Source: Candidatus Staskawiczbacteria bacterium
GTDB lineage: Bacteria > Patescibacteriota > Minisyncoccia > Minisyncoccales > Staskawiczbacteraceae
DNA: 64,000 nt
Direction of reading: 5' to 3'
Assembly: GCA_026395175.1 (NCBI GenBank)
Contig: JAPLZF010000017.1
Coordinates: forward strand, 12,017-76,016
Below, one piece after another: positions 1,756 to 56,729 of this stretch; positions within the stretch are counted from its first letter, which is position 1; every line of letters begins with the position of its first letter. Made by a program: the position numbers and the translations under genes. The notes beneath the pieces were generated by a model. The model was given only the letters and a program-made list of their open reading frames with translations, was not told where the DNA came from and did not search any database.

Positions 1756-4700
1756 GTTGCAGGCGGAGTTGCAGGCGGAGAGGCAGAACCAGTTGAGCAT
1801 TCTTTCAATGCCTTGGTTCCAGAATTGGTTTGAATTCTTATTCCGGAATCATTTGGGTCTCCCGGATTTACCAAAACCACGCCCCAAATTCCTGAATTTT
1901 CTTTAATTCTTAAAGGAGAAGTTGCAGTTCCCGGAGCTTGGCCTGCAATATGAACTGATTCAGAACCATTCCAAATGCGAAGTCCGCTGTCAGCGCAAAG
2001 AGGCGCTTGAAGAGTGGCAGCGCAAGCAGTGCTATTTCCGCATGACCATGTTGTTGTCGGAGTATTTGTTGTCGGGAAAGTTGGAGTAAATCCTTTGTTA
2101 AAATATTGCAAAGCAAACCCTGTAAAGTCTCCAAAGGAATAAGGTCCTTTTCCTACTGAATATGTTCCTAATCTGCTTCCCGATGAATCAAGTTTTGTAA
2201 CAGTGCGTCCGCCGTTGTTGCCCGCGCCCGAATTGGCAACCCAAACATTTCCATAAGCGTCAACCGCAACTCCGTAAGGATTGTTGCCAAAAGCGCCGAC
2301 TCCTGAAGAATATGTCCCTATCACATTTCCTAATGAATTAAGTTCTGTGACAGTATTATCATCAAAATTAGCAACCCAGACATTTCCTGAAGAATCAACC
2401 GCAATCCCGCGAGGATTATTTCCTACTGGATATGTTCCCAACACATTTCCCGACGAATCAAGCTTTGTGACGCTGTTACTGCCCGCATTGGCAACCCAGA
2501 CATTCCCATAAGCATTAACCGCAATTCCATAGGGATTATTTCCTACAGAAGATATTGCTATAATTGCTCCAGTGGAGCTGTTTAGTTTTGTGACGCTGTT
2601 CCCTCCGCTGTCTGTAACCCAAGCATTCCCGGAAGGGTCAACTGCAATTCCGTAAGCGCCACTTTCTACAGAATATGGGCTTCCTGAATATTGGGTTCCG
2701 TCTGAGTGAAGTTTTGTGACATTATTTCCGCCGGAATTGGCAACCCAAACATTCCCGGCTTCATCAATTGCAATTCCGCGTGGGCCATATCCCACATTAT
2801 ATGTTCCTATTGTGTTTCCCGAGGAGTCAAGTTTTGTGACGCTGTTACCGCCATTATTGGCAACCCAGACATTCCCGGAAGCATCAACCGCAACTTCTTG
2901 GGGATTATTTCCCACATTATATGTTCCAATCACATTTCCGTTTGAAATATTAAGTTTTGTGACGGTATTGTCTCCGGAATTGGCAATCCAAATGTAAGGA
3001 TTAGAAATGGAAACAGGATTTCCGTGGTTGCAGAAGTTTCCTGTGAAAGCAGTAGAACCGGCTGTATAATTTTTAGCCGCCGAACCGCAAGCGTCGGGGC
3101 AAGATATGCTATAATTTTGATGAAGCTGAAGGGTTTCGTAGTAGTTTCCTTCCACAGCGTGAAGATCTAATGTAAAGTTAATAGTGCCAGTGTCGGCAAC
3201 AGGGACCAAAAAAGGCAGGGCTGAACGATCAAAAGTCATGATGCTTTCCGTCGTATGATCAGGAGTAGCAAATGTGTGAATACAATTTTGTCCTAAGCCC
3301 GGAGAAGAGAGGCAAAAATTATAAGATAAATTCTCACAGCCATGCCCTACAGCTGATACTTGCAAATATCCTTGGCTTCCGCAAGTTAATGTGTCTACGG
3401 GACTATTTACGAACACATTAGTAATAATTGCGAAAGTAGTATTAGCTGAGTAAGTCTCGCTGTCTAAGCATGTGTTGCCTACACATTCCATTGCTTCTGC
3501 TTTTCCTGCTTTGCTTATAAAAAAGAAAGCTGTGGCTAAAACAATTAAAATAATAATCAAAATTGCCAGCAGGATTTTTCTTTTGAGAAGTTTTTTTATA
3601 AAAATAATGCCAACAAAAAGTATCAGGACAAAAATAACTGCAAGAATTATTCTTAGAGAGAAATAATCTCTTGCGTCCATTTTGTCGGATTGCTTTGCAT
3701 AGTCAGAAGAAAGGTTTGTTTTGTAGGAAGCCAAAGTTTTACCATCTTTTGACGCGGTTATTTCTGCCCTCATTGCTAAGGCATTTGCCAGGGCTTTTAC
3801 AGAAATGGTTTTTGTGTATCCAGCATTGAAATCTGTCTTGTCTGAATAATTGGCAACAAGCTTGTTGTTTTGGTTGAATATTTTAACATTTAAGTCCGCT
3901 GGTCCTCCGCCGGAAACTTTATTGGTCATAATGTCAGTCGGACTGCCGGCATAATTTATAGTTATGTTTAATGTTTGTCCTTCTGCAATGCTCGATTTGT
4001 CGCTGGCAACAGAATCTATGGTAACAATATCGCCCCCAATTATATATCTGAAATTAACCGTAGTGGCTCTTTTTACATTATTGCTGTCTAAAAATGATAT
4101 TTCGCCAACATACACTTGAGGCGCGTAATTGAAAGCGGGCAAGTCTATGGAAATTTTTGATTCTGCATTTGGATTTATTGTTATTGTTTTGTCTTTGAAA
4201 GATGAAAGTATGTTATTCGGTTCCGGTCTTTTGTAAATATTTACAGAAGGAGTGATGGTAATTTTGTCTGCGGTATTATTTTCTAAAACAACATTCAAAA
4301 CAGCTTTCTGGCCGGCATAAATTGTCGGGCCTTCCTGAACATTGAAAGCAGTGTCTCCCACATAAACGCCGGCGCTTTTAATTTCTGCCATTCCGGTTCC
4401 ACCGGCAATATTGAGCATTGCATCGTCCCAGCCCATAGAACTGCCATTGTCAAGCATTGCCACAACTTCTATCCCAAGATTGGCTCCGCTTATTGACTCT
4501 GGAATTTTGTATGTAAAATTGACAACTTTTTTCTCGTTTCCAGCCAAAAAAATCGGGCCGTACATTATTGAGTTGTCATATTGCTTTTGAGGAATAGTGT
4601 TTTTATAATTTCCCATTAGAAACACTTCATAGCGAACATTCGGAACGCTCAGGTTTTTTGCATTCCAAAGAGTGAAAGTTCCGGTAACGGTTTCACCTGC

Positions 4701-4859
4701 CCTGTAATCTGTTTTTGAAAGTTTGAGGTCTTTTACATAAACCTCTATTGGGTTTACAATCACCAAAGCATTTGCTTTTGAATTTGCCGACAAAAACGTT
4801 GCAAAACAAAACAGGCAAAAAATTATGAAAACAGATACCTTTTTTTTATTCAACAGCAT
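897..4859 (-). CDS. Giant surface protein (1320 aa): signal peptide, Ig/CARDB-like N-terminal region, central TM hairpin, two NHL-type beta-propeller arrays
   Basis: Single ORF. N-terminal signal VSVFIIFCLFCFATFLSANSKANA. Two adjacent hydrophobic helices near aa 400-452. Fourteen ~42-aa repeats of the form GNVWVAN..N.VTKL...G..(I/V)GTY.VG..P.G(I/V)A(V/T)D. Confidence 0.85.
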   Translation of the reverse strand: MLLNKKKVSVFIIFCLFCFATFLSANSKANALVIVNPIEVYVKDLKLSKTDYRAGETVTGTFTLWNAKNLSVPNVRYEVFLMGNYKNTIPQKQYDNSIMYGPIFLAGNEKKVVNFTYKIPESISGANLGIEVVAMLDNGSSMGWDDAMLNIAGGTGMAEIKSAGVYVGDTAFNVQEGPTIYAGQKAVLNVVLENNTADKITITPSVNIYKRPEPNNILSSFKDKTITINPNAESKISIDLPAFNYAPQVYVGEISFLDSNNVKRATTVNFRYIIGGDIVTIDSVASDKSSIAEGQTLNITINYAGSPTDIMTNKVSGGGPADLNVKIFNQNNKLVANYSDKTDFNAGYTKTISVKALANALAMRAEITASKDGKTLASYKTNLSSDYAKQSDKMDARDYFSLRIILAVIFVLILFVGIIFIKKLLKRKILLAILIIILIVLATAFFFISKAGKAEAMECVGNTCLDSETYSANTTFAIITNVFVNSPVDTLTCGSQGYLQVSAVGHGCENLSYNFCLSSPGLGQNCIHTFATPDHTTESIMTFDRSALPFLVPVADTGTINFTLDLHAVEGNYYETLQLHQNYSISCPDACGSAAKNYTAGSTAFTGNFCNHGNPVSISNPYIWIANSGDNTVTKLNISNGNVIGTYNVGNNPQEVAVDASGNVWVANNGGNSVTKLDSSGNTIGTYNVGYGPRGIAIDEAGNVWVANSGGNNVTKLHSDGTQYSGSPYSVESGAYGIAVDPSGNAWVTDSGGNSVTKLNSSTGAIIAISSVGNNPYGIAVNAYGNVWVANAGSNSVTKLDSSGNVLGTYPVGNNPRGIAVDSSGNVWVANFDDNTVTELNSLGNVIGTYSSGVGAFGNNPYGVAVDAYGNVWVANSGAGNNGGRTVTKLDSSGSRLGTYSVGKGPYSFGDFTGFALQYFNKGFTPTFPTTNTPTTTWSCGNSTACAATLQAPLCADSGLRIWNGSESVHIAGQAPGTATSPLRIKENSGIWGVVLVNPGDPNDSGIRIQTNSGTKALKECSTGSASPPATPPATPSSIFVWVANFSDNTVTKLDGSNGNLLGTYPVGNNPDGVAVDSSGNVWVGNWMDGTVTKLNSSGSVVGTYSLGGYYPSGIATDSSGNVWVASSGGNKVIKLNGSTGATIGTYNVGSLTWQVATDSSGNVWVGSLNGNTVTKLNSAGSVVGTYSAGNETYGVAVDASGNVWVANRLDGTVTKLSSSGNTIGTYDVGNNPSGVATDSSGNVWVTNSDNNVIKLNSSGNAVGTYHIANTLYRITADASGNVWVGNFNGNTVTKLNSSGIIIGTYNVGNHPYGIAVSQQ
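2135..3005 (-). repeat. First array of about 7 tandem ~126-nt NHL-like blade repeats
   Basis: Seven VTKL/VTEL-centred units from NPYIWIANSGDNTVTKL to RTVTKLDSSGSRLGTYSVG. A Cys-rich insert and a PPATPPATP linker (1756-2134) separate this array from the second one. Confidence 0.7.
3492..3660 (-). other. Central transmembrane hairpin inside the 1320-aa protein
   Basis: FSLRIILAVIFVLILFVGIIFI, then KKLLKRK, then ILLAILIIILIVLATAFFFISKAGKAEA. This reads as an anchor-like helix, a basic loop, and a signal-peptide-like helix ending in AEA directly before Met457 (codon at 3491-3489). Confidence 0.7.
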
Positions 4860-4867
4860 TTTTTTAT

Positions 4868-6106
4868 TTAAGGATTAATGTCGGTTCTTAACCACAATTG
4901 GCCTGTGGCAGGGCTGGATGGGTCTGACCCATTTCTTGTTTCTATAATTAAACCGCCGGTTGTTTTGGTCAGTCCGCCGACTATTTCAAGTTTTGTTGCC
5001 GGAGTTGCTGTTCCAATTCCAACATTGCCGAAATTTACTGCATTGTGTCCTTCGGCGTTGTCGCCAGCACCAAGCGTGTCGGACAATGTGTCTATGAGAT
5101 TTCCTGTTCCGCTACCAGATGCGTCTGCCCCGCAAATAATATTTCCGCTTGCATCTGTCCACAGCTTATTGTTGCTGGTGGTTCCATTGCAAATAAGGCT
5201 GGTTTTAATTCCGCTTGTTCCGTTGCCGGTATAAATTTCCAGTTTTGCTGATGGCGTTGCTGTTCCAATTCCAACATTGACTGCAAAACCGCCGGTTCCG
5301 CCCAGCACGAGCATATTAGAACCGCCAACTTTAGCATAGTAGCCAATTGCCGTAGCATTGGTGAGGTTGCTCGATAAAACATCAGCGTTGTTGCCAATTG
5401 CCGTGTTATTGCTGCCTGTGGTGTTTGATTGAAGGGAATAATAACCGCTGGCGGTGTTGCCATTGCCTGCGGTGTTGGCGCTAAGAGAGAAAAAACCATC
5501 GGCGGTGTTGTTGGAACCAGTGGTATTGTAATAGAGAGCGCTTTGGCCGTCGGCGATGTTTTGATGTCCTGTGGTGTTGGAAAAGAGAGCATTTTTGCCA
5601 TTGGCGGTGTTTTCCCAACCTGTGGTGTTGGAGAAAAGGGCCTGGTAGCCGTTGGCGGTGTTTTCTGAACCGGTGGTGTTGGAATGCAGAGCCTGATAAC
5701 CAATTGCCAAACTGGTTTTTGCGTCGTCAAAAAAATTGATTAAATCAGCAACCTGCAAAAGGTTATTGGGAGTTGCTGTTCCAATTCCAACTTTGCCCAA
5801 AGGAATAAGCAAAGCATTTACTGCTCCTCCTGTGTTTAATATGGCTCCGCCGGTAGAACCAATAGTTCCTTCTATGTCTAATGTGGTGCCCAAAGTTCCA
5901 TTTCCTCCTATACTCAACGTTCCCAGCTTATATTGTCCTGCACTGCTGACATTCAAGGGAGCAGGGGCATTGTTTCCCGGTGGCGCGGCTGTTGGATTTT
6001 GCCAAGCGGCAAAAGAAACAGAAACAAGCGCAAAGCAGAGAACCGAAATGCTGAAAACCAGATAAGCTGATTTTGCTAATGAAATTTTTTTGTTATTTTT
6101 TTTCAT
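4868..6106 (-). CDS. Secreted fibre/adhesin-like protein (412 aa) with Asn/Thr/Gly repeats
   Basis: N-terminal signal anchor. Six tandem ~17-aa repeats (SNTTGxxNTAxGxxALF). Three copies of VGIGTATPxxxLE(I/V), a motif I associate with phage tail-fibre and trimeric-adhesin proteins. Confidence 0.75.
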   Translation of the reverse strand: MKKNNKKISLAKSAYLVFSISVLCFALVSVSFAAWQNPTAAPPGNNAPAPLNVSSAGQYKLGTLSIGGNGTLGTTLDIEGTIGSTGGAILNTGGAVNALLIPLGKVGIGTATPNNLLQVADLINFFDDAKTSLAIGYQALHSNTTGSENTANGYQALFSNTTGWENTANGKNALFSNTTGHQNIADGQSALYYNTTGSNNTADGFFSLSANTAGNGNTASGYYSLQSNTTGSNNTAIGNNADVLSSNLTNATAIGYYAKVGGSNMLVLGGTGGFAVNVGIGTATPSAKLEIYTGNGTSGIKTSLICNGTTSNNKLWTDASGNIICGADASGSGTGNLIDTLSDTLGAGDNAEGHNAVNFGNVGIGTATPATKLEIVGGLTKTTGGLIIETRNGSDPSSPATGQLWLRTDINP

Positions 6107-38781: not shown

Positions 38782-41319
38782 ATGGCATTTTCTCAATTCA
38801 CAAATAAATCTCCAGAAGAAGTTTTCAAGATTTTTAAAACTTCCGGCGGCGGCCTCTCAAAAAAAGAGGCGAATTTTGCTTTGGCAAAATTCGGTCTGAA
38901 CGAGGTGAAGACCAAAAATATCAATGCCCTGGAAATTTTTGTCAGGCAATTGAAATCTCCTTTTGCCTATTTGCTTTTAATTGCGGCGATAGTGTCTGTT
39001 TTTATCGGCCAGCCGGTTGACAGCATTGCAGTTTTGGCTTTTATTTTTATCAATGTTTCCATCGGATTTTTTCAGGAATATAGGGCGGAGAGAGCGGTGA
39101 TTCTTTTGCAAAGATTCATTCCCCAAAAAGTAAAAGTTTTGCGCGATTCAAAAGAAGAAGTCATCGATAAAAAATTTTTGGTGCCGGGTGATGTTGTTTT
39201 ATTGGAGGCCGGCGACAATGTTCCTGCCGACTTGCGGGCGATAAATCTGGAAAACTTTTTAGCCGACGAATCGGCTTTGACCGGCGAATCTGTTCCGGCT
39301 TCTAAAATTATAGAAGCTTTGCCAAGCGAAGAAAAAGAAATTTTCAAGGCAAAGAATATTATTTTTTCAGGCACTTCTGTTATTTCCGGCAAAGCCCGGG
39401 CTATTGTTGTGGCTGCCGGCAAAGACACGGTTTTTGGCAACATTGTCAAAATAATTTCCGGCATAAAAAGAGAATCAGCCTACGAAAAAAGCATCATATA
39501 TTTTTGCAAGCTGATTTTAAGGATTGTCGCCACCACAATAATCTTAATTTTTATTGCCAATATTCTGCTGAAAGGAATAAATGATATTTTGGAGCTTCTT
39601 TTGTTTTCTGTTGCCTTAATAGTGAGCATTCTGCCGGAAGCCCTGCCGGCCGTTGTGACTTTTGCGCTTTCTGAAGGAAGCTTGAAAATGGCGCGGCAAA
39701 AAGTTGTTGTGAAAAGATTGTCGGCAATTGAAGATTTGGGCAACATAGAAGTTTTATGCGCCGACAAAACAGGAACGCTGACTCAGAATAAATTATCTTT
39801 GGAAGAAATTGTTTCCTCTGACAAGAAAAAATGTTTTTTGTACGGAATTTTGACTTCGGGAGCCAAAGACAAAGACGACAAAATTTTGAATCCGTTTGAC
39901 TCGGCTTTATTTGCTCGTGTTCCGGATGATGTTTTGAGGCAGTCAAAAAAGTTTGAAATAATTTCAGAATTGCCGTTTGATTCTTACAGAATGAGGTCTG
40001 CATTTTTGGCGCAATCATCTAAAAACGAGAGATTTTTAATTGTTAAGGGAGCTCCGGAATCAATTTTGAAAAACTGCTCGAAGTTTGGCGGGAATTTTGA
40101 CAAAAAAGAGATTAAGGAAGATGTGGAAAAAGAAGGACTGGAAGGAAAAAGAGTTTTGGCGCTGGCGTTTAAAAAAGTTGATAAAGAAAAAAATAATTTA
40201 AAAGTTGAAGATGAAAAAGGGCTTACTTTTTTGGGATATTTTGTTTTTGAAGACCCTCTGAAAAATACAGCCAAAGAGGCGATAGAATTGTCAAAAAAAT
40301 TAGGAGTCCAAATTAAAATTATTACAGGAGATTCAAAAGAAGTTGCAGGATATGTCGCCAGAAAAACCGGCTTGGCTTCAAGCGAGCAGGATATTATTTC
40401 AGGCCAGGAATTGGAAAAATTGACAAAAGAAGAATTTGACGACGCCTGTCAGGAAAAATCTGTTTTTGCCAGAATTTCTCCGGACGTAAAGCACAATATA
40501 ATAAAATCTCTGCAGAAAAAATACGAAGTCGGATTTTTGGGAGAAGGAATAAATGACGCGCCGGCGCTAAAAACAGCCGATGTGGGAATTGCCGTTGTCG
40601 AGGCGTCTGATGTTGCCAGGGAAGCCGCAGATGTTGTGCTTTTGCAGAAAGATTTGCGGGTTATTGTAAATGGGATTAAAGACGGCAGAATGATTTTTGC
40701 CAATATCAACAAATATATAAAGTGCGCTTTGGCGAGCAATTTTGGTAATTTTTATTCAATTGCCGTAATTTCCTTGTTTATAAATTACTTGCCAATGCTT
40801 CCGGTGCAAATTTTATTGGGGAATATTTTGTCTGATTTTCCTTTAATTTCTGTTGCCACAGATTCGGTTGACATCGACGAATTAAGAAAGCCAAAATTGT
40901 ACCAGCTTCATAATATTTTGCCGTTAATAATTTCTTTAGCCTTGGTAAGCACAGTTTTTGATTTTATATTTTTTGCCATTTTTTTTAGGCAGGCGCCGGC
41001 GACCATACAAACTTTGTGGTTTATTGAAAGCATTTTAACCGAGCTTTTGCTGATATTCATCATTAGGACAAGGGGAAAATTTTGGCAGGCAAAAAGGCCG
41101 AGCGCTTGGATGATATGGCTAGCTGCAATTGACGCAATTTTTATTGTTGCTTTGCCATTTTTAAAAATTGGGCAGAGCTGGTTTCACTTTGTTGCTTTGC
41201 CAATTTTGCCGCTACTGATTGTGTTTTTGGAAATTGTTGCATATTTTTGGGTCAGCGAATTTGTAAAATTAATTTATTTCCATTATTGGAAAATTCCAAA
41301 TAGTGGTAATATCAAATAA
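38782..41319 (+). CDS. Cation-transporting P-type ATPase (Ca2+/Mg2+ type)
   Basis: CADKTGTLTQN phosphorylation site, LTGESVP actuator motif, GEGINDAPALKTADVGIA hinge, and N-terminal Cation_ATPase_N-like segment. Confidence 0.9.
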   Translation: MAFSQFTNKSPEEVFKIFKTSGGGLSKKEANFALAKFGLNEVKTKNINALEIFVRQLKSPFAYLLLIAAIVSVFIGQPVDSIAVLAFIFINVSIGFFQEYRAERAVILLQRFIPQKVKVLRDSKEEVIDKKFLVPGDVVLLEAGDNVPADLRAINLENFLADESALTGESVPASKIIEALPSEEKEIFKAKNIIFSGTSVISGKARAIVVAAGKDTVFGNIVKIISGIKRESAYEKSIIYFCKLILRIVATTIILIFIANILLKGINDILELLLFSVALIVSILPEALPAVVTFALSEGSLKMARQKVVVKRLSAIEDLGNIEVLCADKTGTLTQNKLSLEEIVSSDKKKCFLYGILTSGAKDKDDKILNPFDSALFARVPDDVLRQSKKFEIISELPFDSYRMRSAFLAQSSKNERFLIVKGAPESILKNCSKFGGNFDKKEIKEDVEKEGLEGKRVLALAFKKVDKEKNNLKVEDEKGLTFLGYFVFEDPLKNTAKEAIELSKKLGVQIKIITGDSKEVAGYVARKTGLASSEQDIISGQELEKLTKEEFDDACQEKSVFARISPDVKHNIIKSLQKKYEVGFLGEGINDAPALKTADVGIAVVEASDVAREAADVVLLQKDLRVIVNGIKDGRMIFANINKYIKCALASNFGNFYSIAVISLFINYLPMLPVQILLGNILSDFPLISVATDSVDIDELRKPKLYQLHNILPLIISLALVSTVFDFIFFAIFFRQAPATIQTLWFIESILTELLLIFIIRTRGKFWQAKRPSAWMIWLAAIDAIFIVALPFLKIGQSWFHFVALPILPLLIVFLEIVAYFWVSEFVKLIYFHYWKIPNSGNIK

Positions 41320-41320
41320 T

Positions 41321-41782
41321 ATGAAAATCAAATCTTTTTTAGTAATATCTTTTTTAGCAATAATAATTTTATGTTCTGCCAGTTTTGCCACGGCTCAAAC
41401 TGCAGATAATTCAACGCTAATTGCCCAGCTTCAGGCAGAAATTGAACAGTTGTCAGCGCAATTGGCTCAGCTTCAGGCAAAGCAAGAATCGTCGCCCGCG
41501 TCATCAGTTTGGTGCTACACTTTTTCTGATAATTTGAAAGCCGGAAATGCAGGTCCTGCGGTTTTGGCATTGCAGACAGCTCTTTTGAAAGAGGGTTTGT
41601 TTTCTGTTTCTGCCACAGGAACTTTCGGTCCAAAAACCGCTTTGGCTGTTGCAAGCTTCCAAGAAAAATATGCCAGCGACATTTTAACTTCAAGCGGATT
41701 AACAAAAGGCACAGGCTATGTTGGCCCGGCAACAAGAACAAAATTAAATGCGCTGTATGGTTGCGCAACAATTCCTAAATAA
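41321..41782 (+). CDS. Secreted peptidoglycan-binding-domain protein (153 aa)
   Basis: Signal peptide MKIKSFLVISFLAIIILCSASFATAQ and PG_binding_1-like GNAGPAVLALQTALLKEGL...FGPKTALAVASFQEKY...YVGPATRTKLNALYGC. Confidence 0.7.
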   Translation: MKIKSFLVISFLAIIILCSASFATAQTADNSTLIAQLQAEIEQLSAQLAQLQAKQESSPASSVWCYTFSDNLKAGNAGPAVLALQTALLKEGLFSVSATGTFGPKTALAVASFQEKYASDILTSSGLTKGTGYVGPATRTKLNALYGCATIPK

Positions 41783-41794
41783 TTTTTCAAACCC

Positions 41795-41824
41795 TTGCAT
41801 AACTCTGCTGGGGGGGGGTATTAT
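41795..41824 (+). promoter_or_regulatory. Putative promoter TTGCAT-18-TATTAT whose spacer contains a G9 homopolymer
   Basis: ttgcat at 41795-41800, spacer aactctgctgggggggg with G9 at 41810-41818, tattat at 41819-41824. Confidence 0.5.
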
Positions 41825-41854
41825 TAGATAATATAATTAAAATAATTAAAAACC

Positions 41855-43144
41855 ATGAAAATTAAGTCTATTATATTCACAGCTGTTTTAGCAACAGCAG
41901 TTTTGTGTTCGCCATTTATTGCTTCAGCCGCCAGTTTAACAAGCTCGCAAATATCTGCAATAATGAACCTGCTTTACGCATTTGGAGCAGATTCAGCAAC
42001 AATTGCCAATGTGCAAACCTCGTTAACCGGCGGAACGCCAAATATTTTGTCTAATTCTTGGTGCCACACTTTTAATGCAAATTTAGGAGTTGGCAATGCC
42101 GGCAACGAAATAGCCGCGTTACATGCAGCTTTAACTAAAGAAGGTTTTACTAGCACCTCATGGAGAGCCGACAATTTTACAGAAACTACGGCTTCAGCAG
42201 TAGTCCAGTTTCAACAGAAATATGGAATTAGCCGAACAGGTTATGTTGGTCCATTAACCCGAGCAAAATTAAATGCTTTATATGGATGTAGAATAATAAC
42301 CCCGCAAAATATTACAATTAATTCTGTTTCTGGGCCAAACTCGCTTAATGTTGGGCAAACAGGAACCTGGACAGTAAACGCAACAGCTCCAAGCGGAACA
42401 AATTTAACATACAGAGCAGCGTGGGGCGAATATGATGGCTATATGGGAATTTCTTCCCAAGCAATCCCAACTGGCTTAATTAATCAAACCGGCACATTCA
42501 CTCATTCTTATGCCAATGCAGGCACCTACACCGCAACATTTATTGTTTACAGCGGATATAATTGCGTAAATTATTCCACCGGAGCGCTAAATTCTGCTTG
42601 CAGCTCTACTCAAACCAGCCTAACTGTTGTTGTGGGAGCAGTTAATGGCAATTTATCAATAACTTATCCTTCCGACCCGGCTAATTGGCATGATTATGTT
42701 GGCGGAAATTATTCCAAAGTTTTTAGTGTTGTAAACTCATCGGCTAGCCGGCATTATTCGTGGTCAATTACCAGCGGTTCTTTGCCATCGGGTCTAAATT
42801 TAACTAATCAGTTGGTTGCCTGTGCTACATATGCTTGCGTTGTTGGCCAATATTGTCCGCCTTGCCCAGATGGTTCTAGTCAAATAATTATTACCGGCAC
42901 TCCAACTCAAGCCGGCAATTTTCCATTTACTTTGACTGTTCGCGACGACCTGGGCAACACCGGCTTAGTAAACCTCAACATTTACATTGAAACAATGTCA
43001 GGATGCGCTAACCTATATTGGGCAGACAATACAAATAGAAGCTGTCAGACAATGAGACAATTTTGCGGAGCATATATGTATTATGGTTTGTATACATTTA
43101 ATACCCAGCAAGATTGTATAAATGCAGTCACGTCTGGGCATTAA
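41855..43144 (+). CDS. Secreted protein: PG-binding domain plus PKD-like and Ig-like domains (429 aa)
   Basis: Signal peptide. PG_binding_1-like segment paralogous to the previous gene (YVGPLTRAKLNALYGC). PKD-like GQTGTWTVNA...HSYANAGTYTATFIV. Ig-like SLPSGLNL...ITGTPTQAGNFPFTLTVRD. Confidence 0.75.
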   Translation: MKIKSIIFTAVLATAVLCSPFIASAASLTSSQISAIMNLLYAFGADSATIANVQTSLTGGTPNILSNSWCHTFNANLGVGNAGNEIAALHAALTKEGFTSTSWRADNFTETTASAVVQFQQKYGISRTGYVGPLTRAKLNALYGCRIITPQNITINSVSGPNSLNVGQTGTWTVNATAPSGTNLTYRAAWGEYDGYMGISSQAIPTGLINQTGTFTHSYANAGTYTATFIVYSGYNCVNYSTGALNSACSSTQTSLTVVVGAVNGNLSITYPSDPANWHDYVGGNYSKVFSVVNSSASRHYSWSITSGSLPSGLNLTNQLVACATYACVVGQYCPPCPDGSSQIIITGTPTQAGNFPFTLTVRDDLGNTGLVNLNIYIETMSGCANLYWADNTNRSCQTMRQFCGAYMYYGLYTFNTQQDCINAVTSGH

Positions 43145-43158
43145 AAAATAGAATAAAA

Positions 43159-43185
43159 AGGCGGGAAGAAATTCTCGCCTTTTTT
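43159..43185 (+). terminator. Intrinsic terminator
   Basis: Stem aggcgggaa / ttctcgcct with loop gaaa, followed by a T-run. Confidence 0.7.
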
Positions 43186-43240
43186 AGTGGGATATAATAA
43201 CAAATGGTTGAATATAGTAACAAGAATATATAAGGAACAT

Positions 43241-43280
43241 ACCGGTAGCGTTTTTGCCTCCAGGCAAAAACGCTACCGGT
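43241..43280 (+). repeat. Perfect 18-bp-stem palindrome, copy 1 (upstream of PaaX-like gene 1)
   Basis: accggtagcgtttttgcc tcca ggcaaaaacgctaccggt. Confidence 0.9.
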
Positions 43281-43328
43281 AACATTAAATTCTTTTGTTG
43301 TGATATAATAGAAATATATAATAAAGAT

Positions 43329-43883
43329 ATGAGTTCTGTAACGGAAAAAATATTGTTGCATTTATATGATTGCGTTGATTATGGTTTTAGTTATCGGGCG
43401 AAGAAGGGGTTTTTTATTTCGGAATATTTTGACCACTGGAAAAATGAAATTAGTCCCAGTAAAATTAAAGACGGCATAAGGGATTTAAACAAGCAGAAAT
43501 TTATCAGGAAGAAAGAAAAATATGACGGTTCGGTGTTTGTCTCGCTTACAGAGAAGGGCAGGCTGAGAGCTCTTAACCTTAAATTCAGGTGCCTTGGGAA
43601 CAAAAAAGAAAAATGGGATGGAAAATGGCGGATGGTGGCTTTTGATATTCCCGATAAATATAAAAAAGGAAGAAGTGCATTAAGATACAGACTGAAAATG
43701 GCGGGCTTCTACGAACTTCAGGAAAGCTTATTTTTATATCCTTATGATTGCCAAGAAGAGATGAAAAATCTTGTAAATTTATTTAATTTGCGAAAGTATG
43801 TATGTTTTGCAGTAATCACCAGTATAGACGACGAAAGAATTATAAGAGTAGAGCAAAGAATAAAAAAGCTTAAAACGTCGTAA
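43329..43883 (+). CDS. PaaX-like regulator (winged helix plus Cas2-fold PaaX_C-like domain), paralog 1
   Basis: WDGKWRMVAFDIPDKYKKGRSALRYRLKMAGFYELQESLFLYPYD matches the W.G.W..V.FD.P...R..LR..L...GF..LQ.S pattern. The ATG at 43329 follows an extended -10, tgaTATAAT (43301-43309). Confidence 0.6.
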   Translation: MSSVTEKILLHLYDCVDYGFSYRAKKGFFISEYFDHWKNEISPSKIKDGIRDLNKQKFIRKKEKYDGSVFVSLTEKGRLRALNLKFRCLGNKKEKWDGKWRMVAFDIPDKYKKGRSALRYRLKMAGFYELQESLFLYPYDCQEEMKNLVNLFNLRKYVCFAVITSIDDERIIRVEQRIKKLKTS

Positions 43884-43889
43884 TTTGTG

Positions 43890-43933
43890 ATACTGGTAGC
43901 GTTTTTGCCTCCAGCCAAAAACGCTACCAGTAT
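43890..43933 (+). repeat. 18-bp-stem palindrome, copy 2 (downstream of PaaX-like gene 1)
   Basis: atactggtagcgtttttg cctccagc caaaaacgctaccagtat. Shares the core ggtagcgtttttgcctccag.caaaaacgctacc with copy 1. Confidence 0.9.
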
Positions 43934-43950
43934 ACCAGTAATATATTGGG

Positions 43951-44050
43951 TTTAGTTTAGTTTAGTTTAGTTTAGTTTAGTTTAGTTTAGTTTAGTTTAG
44001 TTTAGTTTAGTTTAGTTTAGTTTAGTTTAGTTTAGTTTAGTTTAGTTTAG
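43951..44050 (+). repeat. Pentanucleotide microsatellite (TTTAG)x20
   Basis: I counted 100 nt of perfect tttag units. Degenerate T/G-rich sequence follows to about 44100. Intergenic, upstream of rmuC. Confidence 0.95.
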
Positions 44051-44112
44051 TATTGTTCTGTTGTTTCTTGGTAAATTTTGCGTTGGGTTTAGTTTTGAGG
44101 TAGAATAATATT

Positions 44113-45132
44113 ATGGACATTACAACAATACTTTTAATTGTAATTGCGGTGGGGGTGGTGACGGCGATTTTTTTGTTGGTTGTGCGGAGAAGTCCTTCGA
44201 CGGGCTCAGGACAAAAGCAAGACGATAACTCGTTCTTGCTTTTGCATCAGCAGATAAATCAAATTGCGCAGGCAGTTGATTCAAAGTTGTCCGAGTCAAA
44301 TAAAAATGTTCAGGAGCAATTTAAGCATTCAGCCGACATTATTAGAAATGTTACCGAAAAATTAACCAAGCTGGACGAAACAAACAGGCAAGTGGTTGGG
44401 TTTGCCGACCAGTTGAAAGGCTTGCAGGACATTTTGAAAAATCCAAAACAGCGGGGGATTTTGGGCGAATATTATTTGGAAACTGTTTTAAAAAATGTTT
44501 TACCGCCGGGTTCTTACCAAATGCAATATGGGTTTTCAAACGGAGAAATTGTTGACGCGGTTGTTTTTGTGGACAAAAGAATAATTCCAATTGACTCAAA
44601 ATTTTCTTTAGATAACTACAACCGAATGCTTCAGACAAATGACCCTTTAGAGAAAAAAAGACTTGAAACAGCTTTTGTTAATGATTTAAAATTAAGAATT
44701 GATGAAACCTCAAAATATGTACGGCCAGAAGAAAAAACAATGGATTTTGCTTTTATGTTTATTCCGTCTGAAGCTGTTTATTATGACTTGCTGATAAACA
44801 AAGTGGGAGTTGTTTCTGAAGACACAAATAATTTAATTTATTATGCCGGCAAGAAAAAAGTTATTGTTGTTTCGCCAACTTCATTTTTGGCATATTTGCA
44901 GACGGTTTTGCAGGGGCTGAGAAATCAAAAAATTTCAGACCAGGCGCAGACAATAATTAAAGAAGTTGAAAGGCTGGGCAAACATTTGTTTACGTATTCA
45001 GAACATTTTAACCGGCTGGGCACGCATTTGGAAGCAACAACAAGCAGCTTTAACAAGGCAAAAGTTGAATTTGGCAAAATTGACAAAGACGTTGTAAAAC
45101 TTACGGGCAGCAACCCAACGCTTGACGAATAA
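44113..45132 (+). CDS. rmuC: DNA recombination protein RmuC
   Basis: N-terminal TM, coiled coil, GILGEYYLETVLKNVLP...VDAVVFVDKRIIPIDSKFSLDNY and FMFIPSEAVY. The -10 tagaat (44101-44106) ends 6 nt before the ATG, so the mRNA may be leaderless. Confidence 0.8.
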   Translation: MDITTILLIVIAVGVVTAIFLLVVRRSPSTGSGQKQDDNSFLLLHQQINQIAQAVDSKLSESNKNVQEQFKHSADIIRNVTEKLTKLDETNRQVVGFADQLKGLQDILKNPKQRGILGEYYLETVLKNVLPPGSYQMQYGFSNGEIVDAVVFVDKRIIPIDSKFSLDNYNRMLQTNDPLEKKRLETAFVNDLKLRIDETSKYVRPEEKTMDFAFMFIPSEAVYYDLLINKVGVVSEDTNNLIYYAGKKKVIVVSPTSFLAYLQTVLQGLRNQKISDQAQTIIKEVERLGKHLFTYSEHFNRLGTHLEATTSSFNKAKVEFGKIDKDVVKLTGSNPTLDE

Positions 45133-45718: not shown

Positions 45719-47734
45719 ATGAGCAAAACATTTCATAAGAGTTTTGTATTTTTGTTTGCCGCAATTTTTGCAATGTGCGGTTTTTTTATTGCCAGCGATG
45801 TACTCGCAGCAAGAACCCTTAATTCTGTAACGATTAATGGGGTAAGCAGTGTTTTTGTTAAGGGAGGACAAGCAGTTACCATCGCCGTAACCGTTACATT
45901 GTCTGGTACATCCTCAAACTCATGGTATTCCACGAGGTATCAGATTGGTACTTTGGGATGGGTTTGTGTTGATACTCCCGATCATCTTTCTGGTCACAAT
46001 GGAACCTATACAGAGACGTTTTCAATAACAGCACCAGTAGCACAAGGAAACTATAATCTTGCTATTACCGCACACGGTCGAGATAATACCTGTAATACTT
46101 CTTACAGCACAAACCAGATCACATTAACGAATGGAATTATTGTTGATAATACCGCGCCGACGCTGAATTTACCTGCCGATATAATCCAGCAGGCAACGGG
46201 GATAACTGGTAAAATAATAGATTACACAGCAACCGCCAATGATTCCTATCCAGCACATCCTGCAGTAAATTGCACTCCGCCGTCTGGCTCAGTCTTTCCA
46301 ATTGGACTAACAACTGTGAATTGTTCTGCGACCGATAATGCAGGCAATATTTCAAATGGCAGTTTTAAGGTTGAAATAACAAAATTAGACCAGACAATTT
46401 CTGTGACAAAATCTGCGCCGGTGAGCGCGATTTATGGAGATAATTTTGATGTTTCGGCGAGTGCGACTTCAGGATTAGATGTTGTCATCACAACTTCGGG
46501 TTCTTGTTTTGGTGATGGGACAAATTCTGCGACAATCACAATGACAAGTGGCGCAGGAACTTGCGCAGTGCATTATAATCAAGCGGGTGATCCGTCTTAT
46601 AATCCTGCTCCCGAAGTTATAGAAAATACAACAGCTCAACCAAAAATTATAAATGTTACCGCTGATGCTAAAGGCAAAAATTACGGCGACGCCGGCTCGG
46701 CTTTGACTTATGTAAATGATCCGTTAGTCGGCAGTGATTCTTTTACCGGCGACCTATCCCGCGACCCTGGCGAAGATGTTGGTGTCTACGCCATCACGCA
46801 AGGAACATTAGCTTTAAGCGGTAATTATACTTTAAATTATGTTCCAGCAAACTTAACGATTTCGCAGTTTATTCCTGTCATCAATGTTATAATTGAAGCT
46901 AAAAACAAAACCTACGGCGATGCCGACCCTGCTTTGACTTATACTTTTTCTCCTGCGTTGTATGACGGAGATACTTTCAGCGGTTCGTTGAGCCGGGCAA
47001 GCGGAGAAGATGTCGGTTTTTATGTCATTGCTCAAGGCACTTTAACGGCTGGTCCTAATTATAATTTAAGTTTTGCAGGAGCCGACCTAACAATTAATCA
47101 GAAAGATATTACCACAACCGCCGATGTCAAAAACAAAACCTACGGCGATGCCGACCCGGCATTTACTTACCAAATTACCAGCGGTTCGTTGGTCGGTAGT
47201 GATGCTTTTTCCGGTGACCTAACTCGCAATGCAGGTGAAGATGTCGGCATTTACGCTATCACGCAAGGAACGTTGTCTGCCGGTCCTAATTATAATTTAA
47301 GTTTTGCAGGAGCCGACCTAATAATTAATCAGAAAGATATTACTGTTACTGCCAATCCTAAAAATAAAATTTACAATGATGCCGACCCGGCTTTGACTTA
47401 CACCAGTGACCCGTTAGCTTTTGGCGATTCTTTTACTGGCGCGTTAATCCGCGATGACGGCGAAAGCGTTGGCAGTTATGCTATCAACCAAGGAACATTA
47501 AGCGCTGGGACAAATTATAATATAACATTTGTTCCTTCTATTTTTACTATTATGCCTTTGACAGGCGGAAGCGGAGGCAACGGATACAACAAACCATCGG
47601 AAATCAAAACTAATGATTTTGATATGTTGATTGCAGATTGGGGCAAAAATGGATCAAGCGCAGAGGATTTAAATCATGACGGCGTGGTTGATGAATATGA
47701 TTTGGCATTATTAATGTCCAATTGGAGCTTATAA
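45719..47734 (+). CDS. Secreted adhesin-like protein: HYR-like domain, five MBG-type repeats, C-terminal dockerin-like module
   Basis: Signal peptide. HYR-like DNTAPTLNLPADI...CSATDNAGN. Five ~75-aa repeats (KNKTYGDADPALTY...GEDVG.YAI.QGTL....NY.L.....LTI), with near-identical ~60-nt stretches starting about 47051 and 47282. C-terminal DLNHDGVVDEYDLALLMSNW. Confidence 0.75.
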   Translation: MSKTFHKSFVFLFAAIFAMCGFFIASDVLAARTLNSVTINGVSSVFVKGGQAVTIAVTVTLSGTSSNSWYSTRYQIGTLGWVCVDTPDHLSGHNGTYTETFSITAPVAQGNYNLAITAHGRDNTCNTSYSTNQITLTNGIIVDNTAPTLNLPADIIQQATGITGKIIDYTATANDSYPAHPAVNCTPPSGSVFPIGLTTVNCSATDNAGNISNGSFKVEITKLDQTISVTKSAPVSAIYGDNFDVSASATSGLDVVITTSGSCFGDGTNSATITMTSGAGTCAVHYNQAGDPSYNPAPEVIENTTAQPKIINVTADAKGKNYGDAGSALTYVNDPLVGSDSFTGDLSRDPGEDVGVYAITQGTLALSGNYTLNYVPANLTISQFIPVINVIIEAKNKTYGDADPALTYTFSPALYDGDTFSGSLSRASGEDVGFYVIAQGTLTAGPNYNLSFAGADLTINQKDITTTADVKNKTYGDADPAFTYQITSGSLVGSDAFSGDLTRNAGEDVGIYAITQGTLSAGPNYNLSFAGADLIINQKDITVTANPKNKIYNDADPALTYTSDPLAFGDSFTGALIRDDGESVGSYAINQGTLSAGTNYNITFVPSIFTIMPLTGGSGGNGYNKPSEIKTNDFDMLIADWGKNGSSAEDLNHDGVVDEYDLALLMSNWSL

Positions 47735-56072: not shown

Positions 56073-56082
56073 TATAAAACGA

Positions 56083-56120
56083 TATACCACAAATTATACA
56101 GGTGCATAAATTATGGTATA
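56083..56120 (+). promoter_or_regulatory. 38-nt palindromic operator-like site A (TATACC-N26-GGTATA) upstream of PaaX-like gene 2
   Basis: tataccacaaattatacaggtgcataaattatggtata. The right half overlaps a -10-like tatagt. Confidence 0.55.
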
Positions 56121-56144
56121 GTTAAAAAAGAAACAAAATTATTG

Positions 56145-56666
56145 ATGAAGCTACCAATAACGGATCAATTTTTATGGGATATCTATAATATAGCAAGCAA
56201 AGCAGGTAATGCTTTTGATTTTAAATCTATAAATATGGCAAATTATCTTCCTGGAGTACAAAATCCTGTTTTCAAAAAATATAGAAGCGATAGAGATAAA
56301 GCAAAATTTGCGAAATTAATTTATTATTTAAAAACTAATAACTATATACAGGTTAAAGATTTACAGGGTAAGAAAGCTATTATTTTAACGAAAGAAGGAT
56401 TCAGCAAGGCGTTAAAGGCAAGCTTTGCAATGGAAGGGAAGAAAAAAAGAAAAGATGGTAAGTGGACAATGTTGATTTTCGATATGCCATCGAAAAATCG
56501 ACAGAGGCGAACCCTGATGCGAAGTATTTTACAAAATTTAGGCTATAAAATGTTCCAGCAAAGCGTTTGGATAACCCCTTATGACGTTTCAGATAAAACA
56601 GAATCATATTTACAAATTTATTCGTTAGACAAGTACGTCAAAATATTTTTAATAGAGGAAATATGA
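56145..56666 (+). CDS. PaaX-like regulator, paralog 2
   Basis: DGKWTMLIFDMPSKNRQRRTLMRSILQNLGYKMFQQSVWITPYD parallels the motif in 43329-43883. Confidence 0.6.
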   Translation: MKLPITDQFLWDIYNIASKAGNAFDFKSINMANYLPGVQNPVFKKYRSDRDKAKFAKLIYYLKTNNYIQVKDLQGKKAIILTKEGFSKALKASFAMEGKKKRKDGKWTMLIFDMPSKNRQRRTLMRSILQNLGYKMFQQSVWITPYDVSDKTESYLQIYSLDKYVKIFLIEEI

Positions 56667-56668
56667 AA

Positions 56669-56706
56669 TATACCATAAATATAGTAGGTGCTGAAATTAG
56701 GGTATA
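56669..56706 (+). promoter_or_regulatory. 38-nt palindromic operator-like site B, a direct repeat of site A, upstream of the 194-aa gene
   Basis: tataccataaatatagtaggtgctgaaattagggtata. The right half overlaps tataat (56703-56708). Confidence 0.55.
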
Positions 56707-56729
56707 ATTAAAAAATAATAAATAAAATT

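Follow-up and report, generated by a model that had tools for sequence, protein, structure and literature searches.

A perfect (TTTAG)20 array upstream of rmuC in a Staskawiczbacteria genome and the palindrome-flanked gene cassette beside it

Why would a small bacterial genome carry twenty uninterrupted TTTAG units directly upstream of the promoter of a conserved gene, and does such a tract do anything there? With 100 nt in 20 units and not a single interruption, the array is extreme in length and purity for a small bacterial genome, and an earlier note on the same DNA had put forward a contingency locus modulating rmuC expression, a protein-binding array or a relic of a phage or replicon terminus as its possible roles. 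Here we address the question from the sequence of the window (the whole stretch of DNA analysed, 64,000 nt), from related loci and from a second assembly of the same strain.

The array, the rmuC promoter and the adjoining cassette

The (TTTAG)20 array occupies positions 43951-44050 of the + strand, both by direct reading of the sequence and by Tandem Repeats Finder, which delimits a perfectly periodic stretch of 102 nt at 43950-44051 (period 5, 20.4 copies, 100% matches, 0 indels). The perfect array described in the earlier note is therefore confirmed, and it is exceptional in the window as well as in 838 kb of related DNA: a three-unit 15-mer probe finds 20 matches in the window, all of them in the array, where dinucleotide-preserving shuffles give an expectation of 0.33 and a maximum of 2; apart from the array, no simple repeat of the 64 kb exceeds 15 nt; and the longest perfect simple repeat in the 838 kb of related Parcubacteria loci measures 28 nt. 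A search for TTTAG arrays in 80 rmuC loci (one per species' genome, from a GTDB-based collection) together with other Parcubacteria loci, about 838 kb in all, returned none. By the same 80 loci, the organism belongs to the Patescibacteria/Paceibacteria. The tract is 80% A+T, has G and no C on the + strand, and closes each of the six reading frames with a stop every 15 nt. A repeat driven by secondary structure is excluded by a single-stranded DNA minimum free energy of 0 kcal/mol on both strands, and an Rfam scan of the locus gave nothing above threshold, only sub-threshold hairpin-type matches.

Tandem repeats of another kind, long and imperfect, occur elsewhere in the window at 1063-2939, 22373-22760 and 46649-47551; their periods are 120-123/246, 180 and ~231 nt. 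The last of these corresponds to MBG-domain repeats in the open reading frame at 45719-47734, and the others are presumed to be coding domain repeats of large surface proteins.

Downstream, the array is followed by a T/G-rich spacer, TATTGTTCTGTTGTTTCTTGGTAAATT (44051-44077, + strand), which reaches to the -35 element of the candidate rmuC promoter TTGCGT-17-TAGAAT (44078-44106, + strand), with TTGCGT at 44078-44083, TAGAAT at 44101-44106 and the ATG at 44113. The geometry given in the earlier note, with 27 nt from the array end to the promoter and 6 nt from the -10 to the rmuC start codon, is exact. Its promoter call likewise holds: although the element falls below the threshold of a consensus scanner, TTGCGT matching the consensus at 3/6 positions, it has counterparts in two relatives, TTGCGT-17-TAATAT in locus L103 and TTGCGT-17-TAAGAT in locus L111, and the block TTTTGCGTTGG(G/A)TT(T/A)AGTTTTGAGGTA is near-identical in all three genomes, with the -10 keeping TAnnnT. 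Judged by the alignment of the window with L103 and L111, the rmuC promoter is under constraint and the array is not conserved. A leaderless rmuC mRNA, also proposed previously, is plausible in the window and in L111, where 6 and 8 nt, respectively, separate the -10 from the ATG; in L103 the leader would be 31 nt. The roughly 50 nt of T/G-rich sequence after the array had been regarded as degenerate, and this view we revise: the sequence is present in, and aligns with, the array-less L103 and L111, and it therefore represents ancestral spacer rather than decayed repeat. The gggtttag motif that it contains lies at 44085-44092, within the promoter spacer.

The gene itself (44113-45132, + strand) encodes a 339-aa protein with an N-terminal transmembrane segment and an RmuC family domain, and is followed by rplU. 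With 189 bits (cut-off 26) and an E of 1.3e-55, the match to Pfam PF02646 places the protein in the RmuC family, while its 40.6 bits miss the 810 bits of the E. coli RmuC equivalog model NF007686. rmuC is a syntenic core gene beside rplU, and its -10 region is the same in two relatives (L002 and L003) that have neither the array nor the cassette described below.

Upstream, the genes of the + strand are a P-type ATPase (38782-41319) and two secreted PG_binding-domain proteins (41303-41782 and 41855-43144), then a terminator, a first palindrome, a PaaX_M-like gene, a second palindrome, two copies of TACCAGTA, ATATATTGGG, the array, the 27-nt spacer, the promoter, rmuC and rplU. Palindrome 1 (pal1, 43239-43281) is a perfect 20+2+20 repeat that folds at -24 kcal/mol (z about -10.5), and 22 nt downstream of its right edge lies the TATAAT hexamer of an extended -10, TGATATAAT (43301-43309, + strand), belonging to the PaaX_M-like gene (43329-43883, + strand). 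The product of this gene, a PaaX_M/Cas2-like protein of 184 aa, has the same sequence as MCX6718609.1, which comes from a Candidatus Staskawiczbacteria MAG. It is short, without the C-terminal region of full-length PaaX; against the PaaX equivalog it scores 37.8 bits over residues 50-165 (E 1.5e-9), where the cut-off is 264.55, and its similarity to Cas2 is weak and confined to one domain. Palindrome 2 (pal2, 43890-43933, about 21+2+21 nt) begins 7 nt past the stop codon of this gene and folds as DNA at -19.2 kcal/mol (z = -10.5); it is 93% identical to pal1, with one compensatory change in the arms, and has equivalents in L103 and L111. We take it as a candidate operator for the PaaX_M-like protein and/or a candidate terminator hairpin. 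In L103 and L111 the downstream palindrome is followed by a U-rich tail and thus probably also terminates transcription. At the right edge of pal2 in the window lies the 8-nt tandem duplication TACCAGTA x2 (43925-43940, + strand), absent from both relatives, and together with ATATATTGGG it moves the T-rich tail away from the hairpin. The duplication may therefore weaken termination of the PaaX_M-like transcript, and read-through into the array and rmuC becomes conceivable.

The paired palindromes recur at other such cassettes in Parcubacteria. All eight that we examined on both sides, the window cassette and seven others, consist of a short PaaX_M/Cas2-like gene with a copy of its own palindrome on either side: besides the one upstream of rmuC these are a paralog in the window (gene 56142-56666, palindromes 56082-56143 and 56668-56729), L103 (1703-1738 and 2415-2450), L111 (1655-1688 and 2268-2301), the L105-110 group (3913-3946 and 4552-4585 in L105) and, with approximate borders, L112 (1753-1800 and 2382-2418), L235 (9896-9933 and 10569-10606) and L236 (2921-2954 and 3560-3593). 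The palindromes measure 34-42 nt and are specific to the genome or paralog, their arms changing symmetrically, in compensatory fashion, and diverging along with the protein, and the upstream copy ends 16-22 nt before the extended -10 of the PaaX_M-like gene. They plausibly fit operators of an autoregulating, DNA-binding PaaX_M-like protein, where we infer both the binding and a winged helix-turn-helix (wHTH), the latter from full-length PaaX, and the palindrome-gene-palindrome unit looks like a self-contained operator-gene-operator module. A literature search for a description of a paired-palindrome PaaX_M/Cas2-like module found none.

What follows such a cassette is a nuclease gene in two contexts, namely rmuC in the window (44113-45132) and, in L235 (10656-11345), a gene for a ~229-aa protein with a weak PDDEXK_1 (Cas4/RecB-like) match and an apparent counterpart in L112 (2486-3169); in a third context it is tpiA, and the association with nucleases may thus be chance. 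A PADLOC scan of the locus returned only a domain-level match of RmuC to the RmuC-domain model of a DRT system and weak Cas2 matches. With no reverse transcriptase or cas genes among the neighbouring genes scanned, a reading of the locus as a defence system is unsupported.

Relatives without the array

The two relatives with the closest arrangement carry the same cassette before rmuC and lack the array. Identity to the window proteins is 88% for RmuC and 79% for the PaaX_M-like protein in L103, and 80% for the PaaX_M-like protein in L111. Aligned with each other, the three loci have in common pal2, the spacer TATTGTT(C/T)T... and the promoter block, and the array is found in the window only: where L103 has TTGTTTTTGG, the window has an extra ACCAGTAATATATTGGG and the 100-nt array, so that ...CCAGTA TTGTTTTTGG TATTG... 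in the former corresponds to ...CCAGTA[TACCAGTAATATA]TTGGGTTTAG(TTTAG)19 TATTG... in the latter. Measured from the pal2 centre, the -35 lies 58.5 nt away in L111, 76.5 nt away in L103 and 167.5 nt away in the window, with neither length nor helical phase conserved. Since the flanks are contiguous and the array absent in both relatives, the alignment indicates that the array expanded in place, in the lineage of the window, from a TTTGG/TTTAG-like seed. Absence of positional conservation in relatives had been named in the earlier note as one of two outcomes that would speak against a role for the array, and it is the outcome obtained with L103 and L111.

In two further relatives, L002 and L003, whose RmuC proteins are 84-86% identical, rmuC comes right after the P-type ATPase gene. 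A window segment of 2.8 kb, which comprises the PG_binding genes, the cassette and the array, therefore represents an insertion or deletion within the clade. When window positions 41320-44095 are set against positions of about 4960-5003 in L002 and L003, both borders resemble the ancestral junction G(T/A)GGTA...ATAAT-ATG, a likeness of doubtful significance in such A/T-rich sequence. A duplicate of the first ~46-57 nt of rmuC (ATG...GGTGGT) stands directly upstream of palindrome 1 in L111 (1609-1660) and in the related locus L104 (2768-2825), with weak traces in the window (43188-43238) and in L103 (1653-1700), and it merges into the palindrome arm at a GGTGGT(A/G)GCG(T/A)TTTT microhomology. 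The duplicate and the microhomology suggest that the cassette was inserted at the rmuC 5' end, with duplication of the start of the gene.

Slippage, switching and the copy number

In light of these comparisons, we consider it rather probable that the array is a young, lineage-private slippage microsatellite in a length-tolerant spacer, and that its effect on rmuC is graded at most. A TTTGG/TTTAG-like seed in the T/G-rich spacer between pal2 and the rmuC core promoter would have grown by replication slippage. The DNA thus added, some 100 bp that are unstructured and 80% A+T, would span about -63 to -162 from the expected rmuC start, and each 5-bp unit would amount to about half a helical turn between pal2 and the promoter. 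The array may further ride on read-through RNA from the PaaX_M-like gene, whose terminator tail is disrupted in the window. Little or only a graded effect on rmuC transcription would be expected, not an evolved ON/OFF switch. That all 20 units are uninterrupted suggests a tract that is young or still turning over, and its copy number is hence probably polymorphic in the population; that the spacer tolerates changes in length is indicated by the lengths that already differ between L103 and L111. Simple-repeat slippage does occur in Parcubacteria populations, as seen from an intergenic (AG)n tract in a related Parcubacteria species (L105-L110), whose copy number is 11 in some samples and 12 in others.

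The (AG)n tract lies at 6364-6385 in L105, at 6364-6387 in L106 and L107, at 4264-4287 and 5308-5329 in L108 and at 4368-4389 in L110. In L108 a ~110-nt element holding (AG)n is present twice, around an inserted Bro-N gene (4429-5259), and may be an insertion site. The tract resembles the TTTAG array in being an intergenic simple repeat with a one-unit difference between samples, and differs from it as a dinucleotide repeat that is much shorter, sits inside the duplicated ~110-nt element and is unrelated to rmuC. With neutral intergenic microsatellites of bacteria in general, the array shares a slippage origin from a proto-repeat, restriction to one lineage, a position in a non-coding spacer and the lack of both structure and conserved position, whereas its 100 nt in 20 uninterrupted units set it apart, no other simple repeat in about 900 kb of related DNA exceeding 28 nt.

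Against a neutral reading it can be held that the array has a likely repressor site directly on one side and a conserved promoter on the other, an arrangement that is suggestive, as at nadA of Neisseria meningitidis; that gain or loss of a 5-bp unit flips the helical phase, and the purity of the 100 nt could reflect selection for mutability; and that a neutral insert of 100 bp is somewhat unexpected if the genome is of ~0.9 Mb, the size of a candidate, unconfirmed source MAG. The alternative is an evolved contingency locus or rheostat for rmuC, in which slippage would alter the distance and phase between pal2 and the promoter in half-turn steps, the PaaX_M-like protein at pal2, or read-through from its gene, would act on the rmuC promoter, and levels of the RmuC nuclease would differ between subpopulations. 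Phase variation often affects nucleases, restriction systems among them. The tract is moreover perfect, long and just upstream of a conserved core promoter; as an uninterrupted simple sequence repeat of 20 perfect units it is long enough for frequent slippage; and the upstream palindrome has the properties of an operator cognate to the neighbouring wHTH/Cas2-like protein, given that 7/7 other cassettes are bracketed in the same way and that their arms co-vary. We nevertheless regard such a switch as unlikely. L103 and L111 have the same cassette and no array, so that the tract does not recur in relatives, and with no similar repeats around it, one long simple repeat in 64 kb does not make a family of phase-variable loci. 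The pal2-promoter distance varies 9-18 nt among relatives without keeping phase, the tract lies neither inside an open reading frame nor between the -35 and the -10, and rmuC, the syntenic neighbour of rplU, has the same -10 region where the cassette is missing altogether. Nor is there a second operator-like site on the promoter side: the tract lies 27 nt upstream of the -35 with one palindrome upstream and nothing operator-like downstream, and a scan for operator half-sites from the array to early rmuC coding sequence (43931-44300) yielded 2 weak 8-mer matches against 1.6 expected, which is chance level. The contingency locus of the earlier note thereby survives in a weakened form, with positional conservation, a promoter-side operator, a maintained spacing and a further long simple repeat all speaking against it by their absence.

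Upstream tandem repeats are found as (GAA)n before the vlhA genes of Mycoplasma gallisepticum and as 7-bp repeats before hmw1A/hmw2A of Haemophilus influenzae. The likeness lies in tandem repeats in the 5' flank in small-genome bacteria, with repeat number tuning or gating transcription in vlhA and hmw; these, however, are multigene surface-protein families and polymorphic among strains, whereas the locus here is a single one upstream of a conserved DNA-metabolism gene. Closer in layout is nadA of N. meningitidis, where a TAAA tract upstream of the promoter changes in copy number and thereby shifts the spacing of distal elements, and where operators of NadR flank the tract and their spacing sets expression (PMC2791445). 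The two loci have in common a short A/T-rich tandem repeat upstream of a core promoter, outside both the open reading frame and the -35/-10 interval, with a likely repressor site on the distal side of the repeat. They differ in that nadA has units of 4 nt, with 6-9 repeats in the promoter variants studied (PMC2791445), against 20 units of 5 nt here, and in that its operators are mapped on both sides of the tract and accompanied by an IHF site, against one palindrome, pal2, on the upstream side only, in a locus known from sequence alone and with relatives that have no tract. That the array would be the first simple-repeat contingency locus in ultra-small CPR/Patescibacteria, with 5-bp steps flipping the phase between a PaaX_M/Cas2-like repressor and a leaderless rmuC promoter, is the most far-reaching version of the argument and one that we consider improbable.

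A different objection concerns the number of units rather than their function: the array could be real and its 20 copies an assembly product, the true tract being longer or a mixture of lengths that was collapsed in a de Bruijn loop or by the popping of bubbles. The periodic stretch of 102 nt would, by our own reasoning, fit the collapse of a loop at k = 98-102; five (TTTAG)n arrays that lie no more than a few nt from the ends of metagenome contigs each measure exactly 100 nt, which points to limits set by assemblers; and the contig of the second assembly breaks within the tract. This contig, from the Logan assembly of SRR20698651 (L001), is an independent assembly of the same strain with an identical left flank, and it stops after 6 units, a stop that reflects the k=31 limit and is uninformative on copy number. 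Its left junction does establish that the reads of another data set contain the array as well; this set stems from the Lac Pavin water column at 90 m (LacPavin_0419_WC90, 150-nt paired reads, PRJNA852163). The default k-mer list of MEGAHIT reaches 141. The Lac Pavin study was assembled with MEGAHIT at default settings (PMC9875498). If the MAG of the window belongs to that study, a tract of 102 nt is shorter than both the k of 141 and the 150-nt reads, which can span it, and 20 copies are plausibly supported by reads; a collapse under the defaults would instead have left about 141-145 nt. As each flank of the array is also unique and corresponds to sequence that runs on without a break in L103 and L111, we think it doubtful, though worth keeping in mind, that the copy number is an artefact. 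Look-ups for further assemblies of the locus gave no match with the exact RmuC and L21 proteins and, with the PaaX_M-like protein, only the Logan contig that ends within the array, and the exact right junction of the array is absent from JGI metagenomes.

Much less credible still is a functional protein-binding or upstream-activating array, recognized by a nucleoid protein, by the alpha subunit of RNA polymerase or as iterons. The tract is indeed 80% A+T and stands at about -63 to -162, within the reach of upstream elements, and at nadA both NadR and IHF contact the TAAA tract (PMC2791445). Relatives with the same promoter, however, have no array, which leaves the binding role suggested earlier without support; a 5-bp period is too short for iterons, and T3 tracts at every half turn should cancel intrinsic bending. 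TTTAG arrays elsewhere, which the earlier note had proposed to search for, bring no help: the related DNA held none, and those in at least 120 metagenome loci with at least 8 units and in 21 viral loci with at least 6 units stand in unrelated contexts and reveal no common motif. Most of these contigs have a low coding density or a low G+C content, and we take them to be eukaryote- or giant-virus-like; none encodes a relative of RmuC or of the PaaX_M-like protein, and the flanking genes, among them those for ankyrin proteins, a T9SS-sorted protein and an AHAS small subunit, share no theme.

To the remaining suggestion, a telomere-like remnant of a mobile-element, phage or linear-replicon end, we attach next to no credence: the array does lie inside the 2.8-kb segment missing from L002 and L003, in L111 and L104 the 5' end of rmuC bears traces of the cassette having been inserted there, and GGGTTTAG resembles TTTAGGG, the plant telomere unit, yet the same junction occurs without the array in L103 and L111, where the flanks are contiguous and the array must accordingly post-date the insertion, no integrase or transposase adjoins it, searches of the locus for phage matches in DNA and protein found none, and no GC-skew inflection was detected at 44 kb, the cumulative skew climbing steadily across 24-62 kb. 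Over the window as a whole, GC skew starts at about zero or below (1-6 kb), turns strongly positive (6-16 kb), dips slightly below zero (16-24 kb) and then stays positive up to 62 kb; the changes within 1-24000 probably reflect changes of gene strand, and none is near the array.

Two more classes of repeat were considered and rejected. A CRISPR, which the earlier note had already dismissed, would show repeats of ~24-48 nt with unique spacers of similar length, as opposed to 5-nt units set head to tail without spacers. Iterons or a DNA-unwinding element of a replication origin are at odds with the missing skew inflection, with a period of 5 nt as against ~17-22 bp and with neighbours that are a PaaX_M-like gene and rmuC.

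Meaning for Staskawiczbacteria and other CPR bacteria

The array is an intergenic bacterial microsatellite upstream of a promoter, of a kind not previously noted in CPR bacteria, and a literature search for work linking Patescibacteria with simple-repeat phase variation found no paper. Should its length prove invariant or without effect, it would be an unusually long neutral microsatellite and an ordinary finding. Were the contingency reading true, subpopulations would differ in a membrane-anchored PD-(D/E)xK recombination nuclease and thus in their handling of foreign or palindromic DNA. The paired, co-varying palindromes around PaaX_M/Cas2-like genes may turn out to be a more reusable result than the array itself. 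If, on the other hand, the length of the array varies, it would provide a strain marker for an uncultivated Staskawiczbacteria population across depth and time in Lac Pavin, as well as a cheap first test of whether CPR bacteria use repeat-driven stochastic variation.
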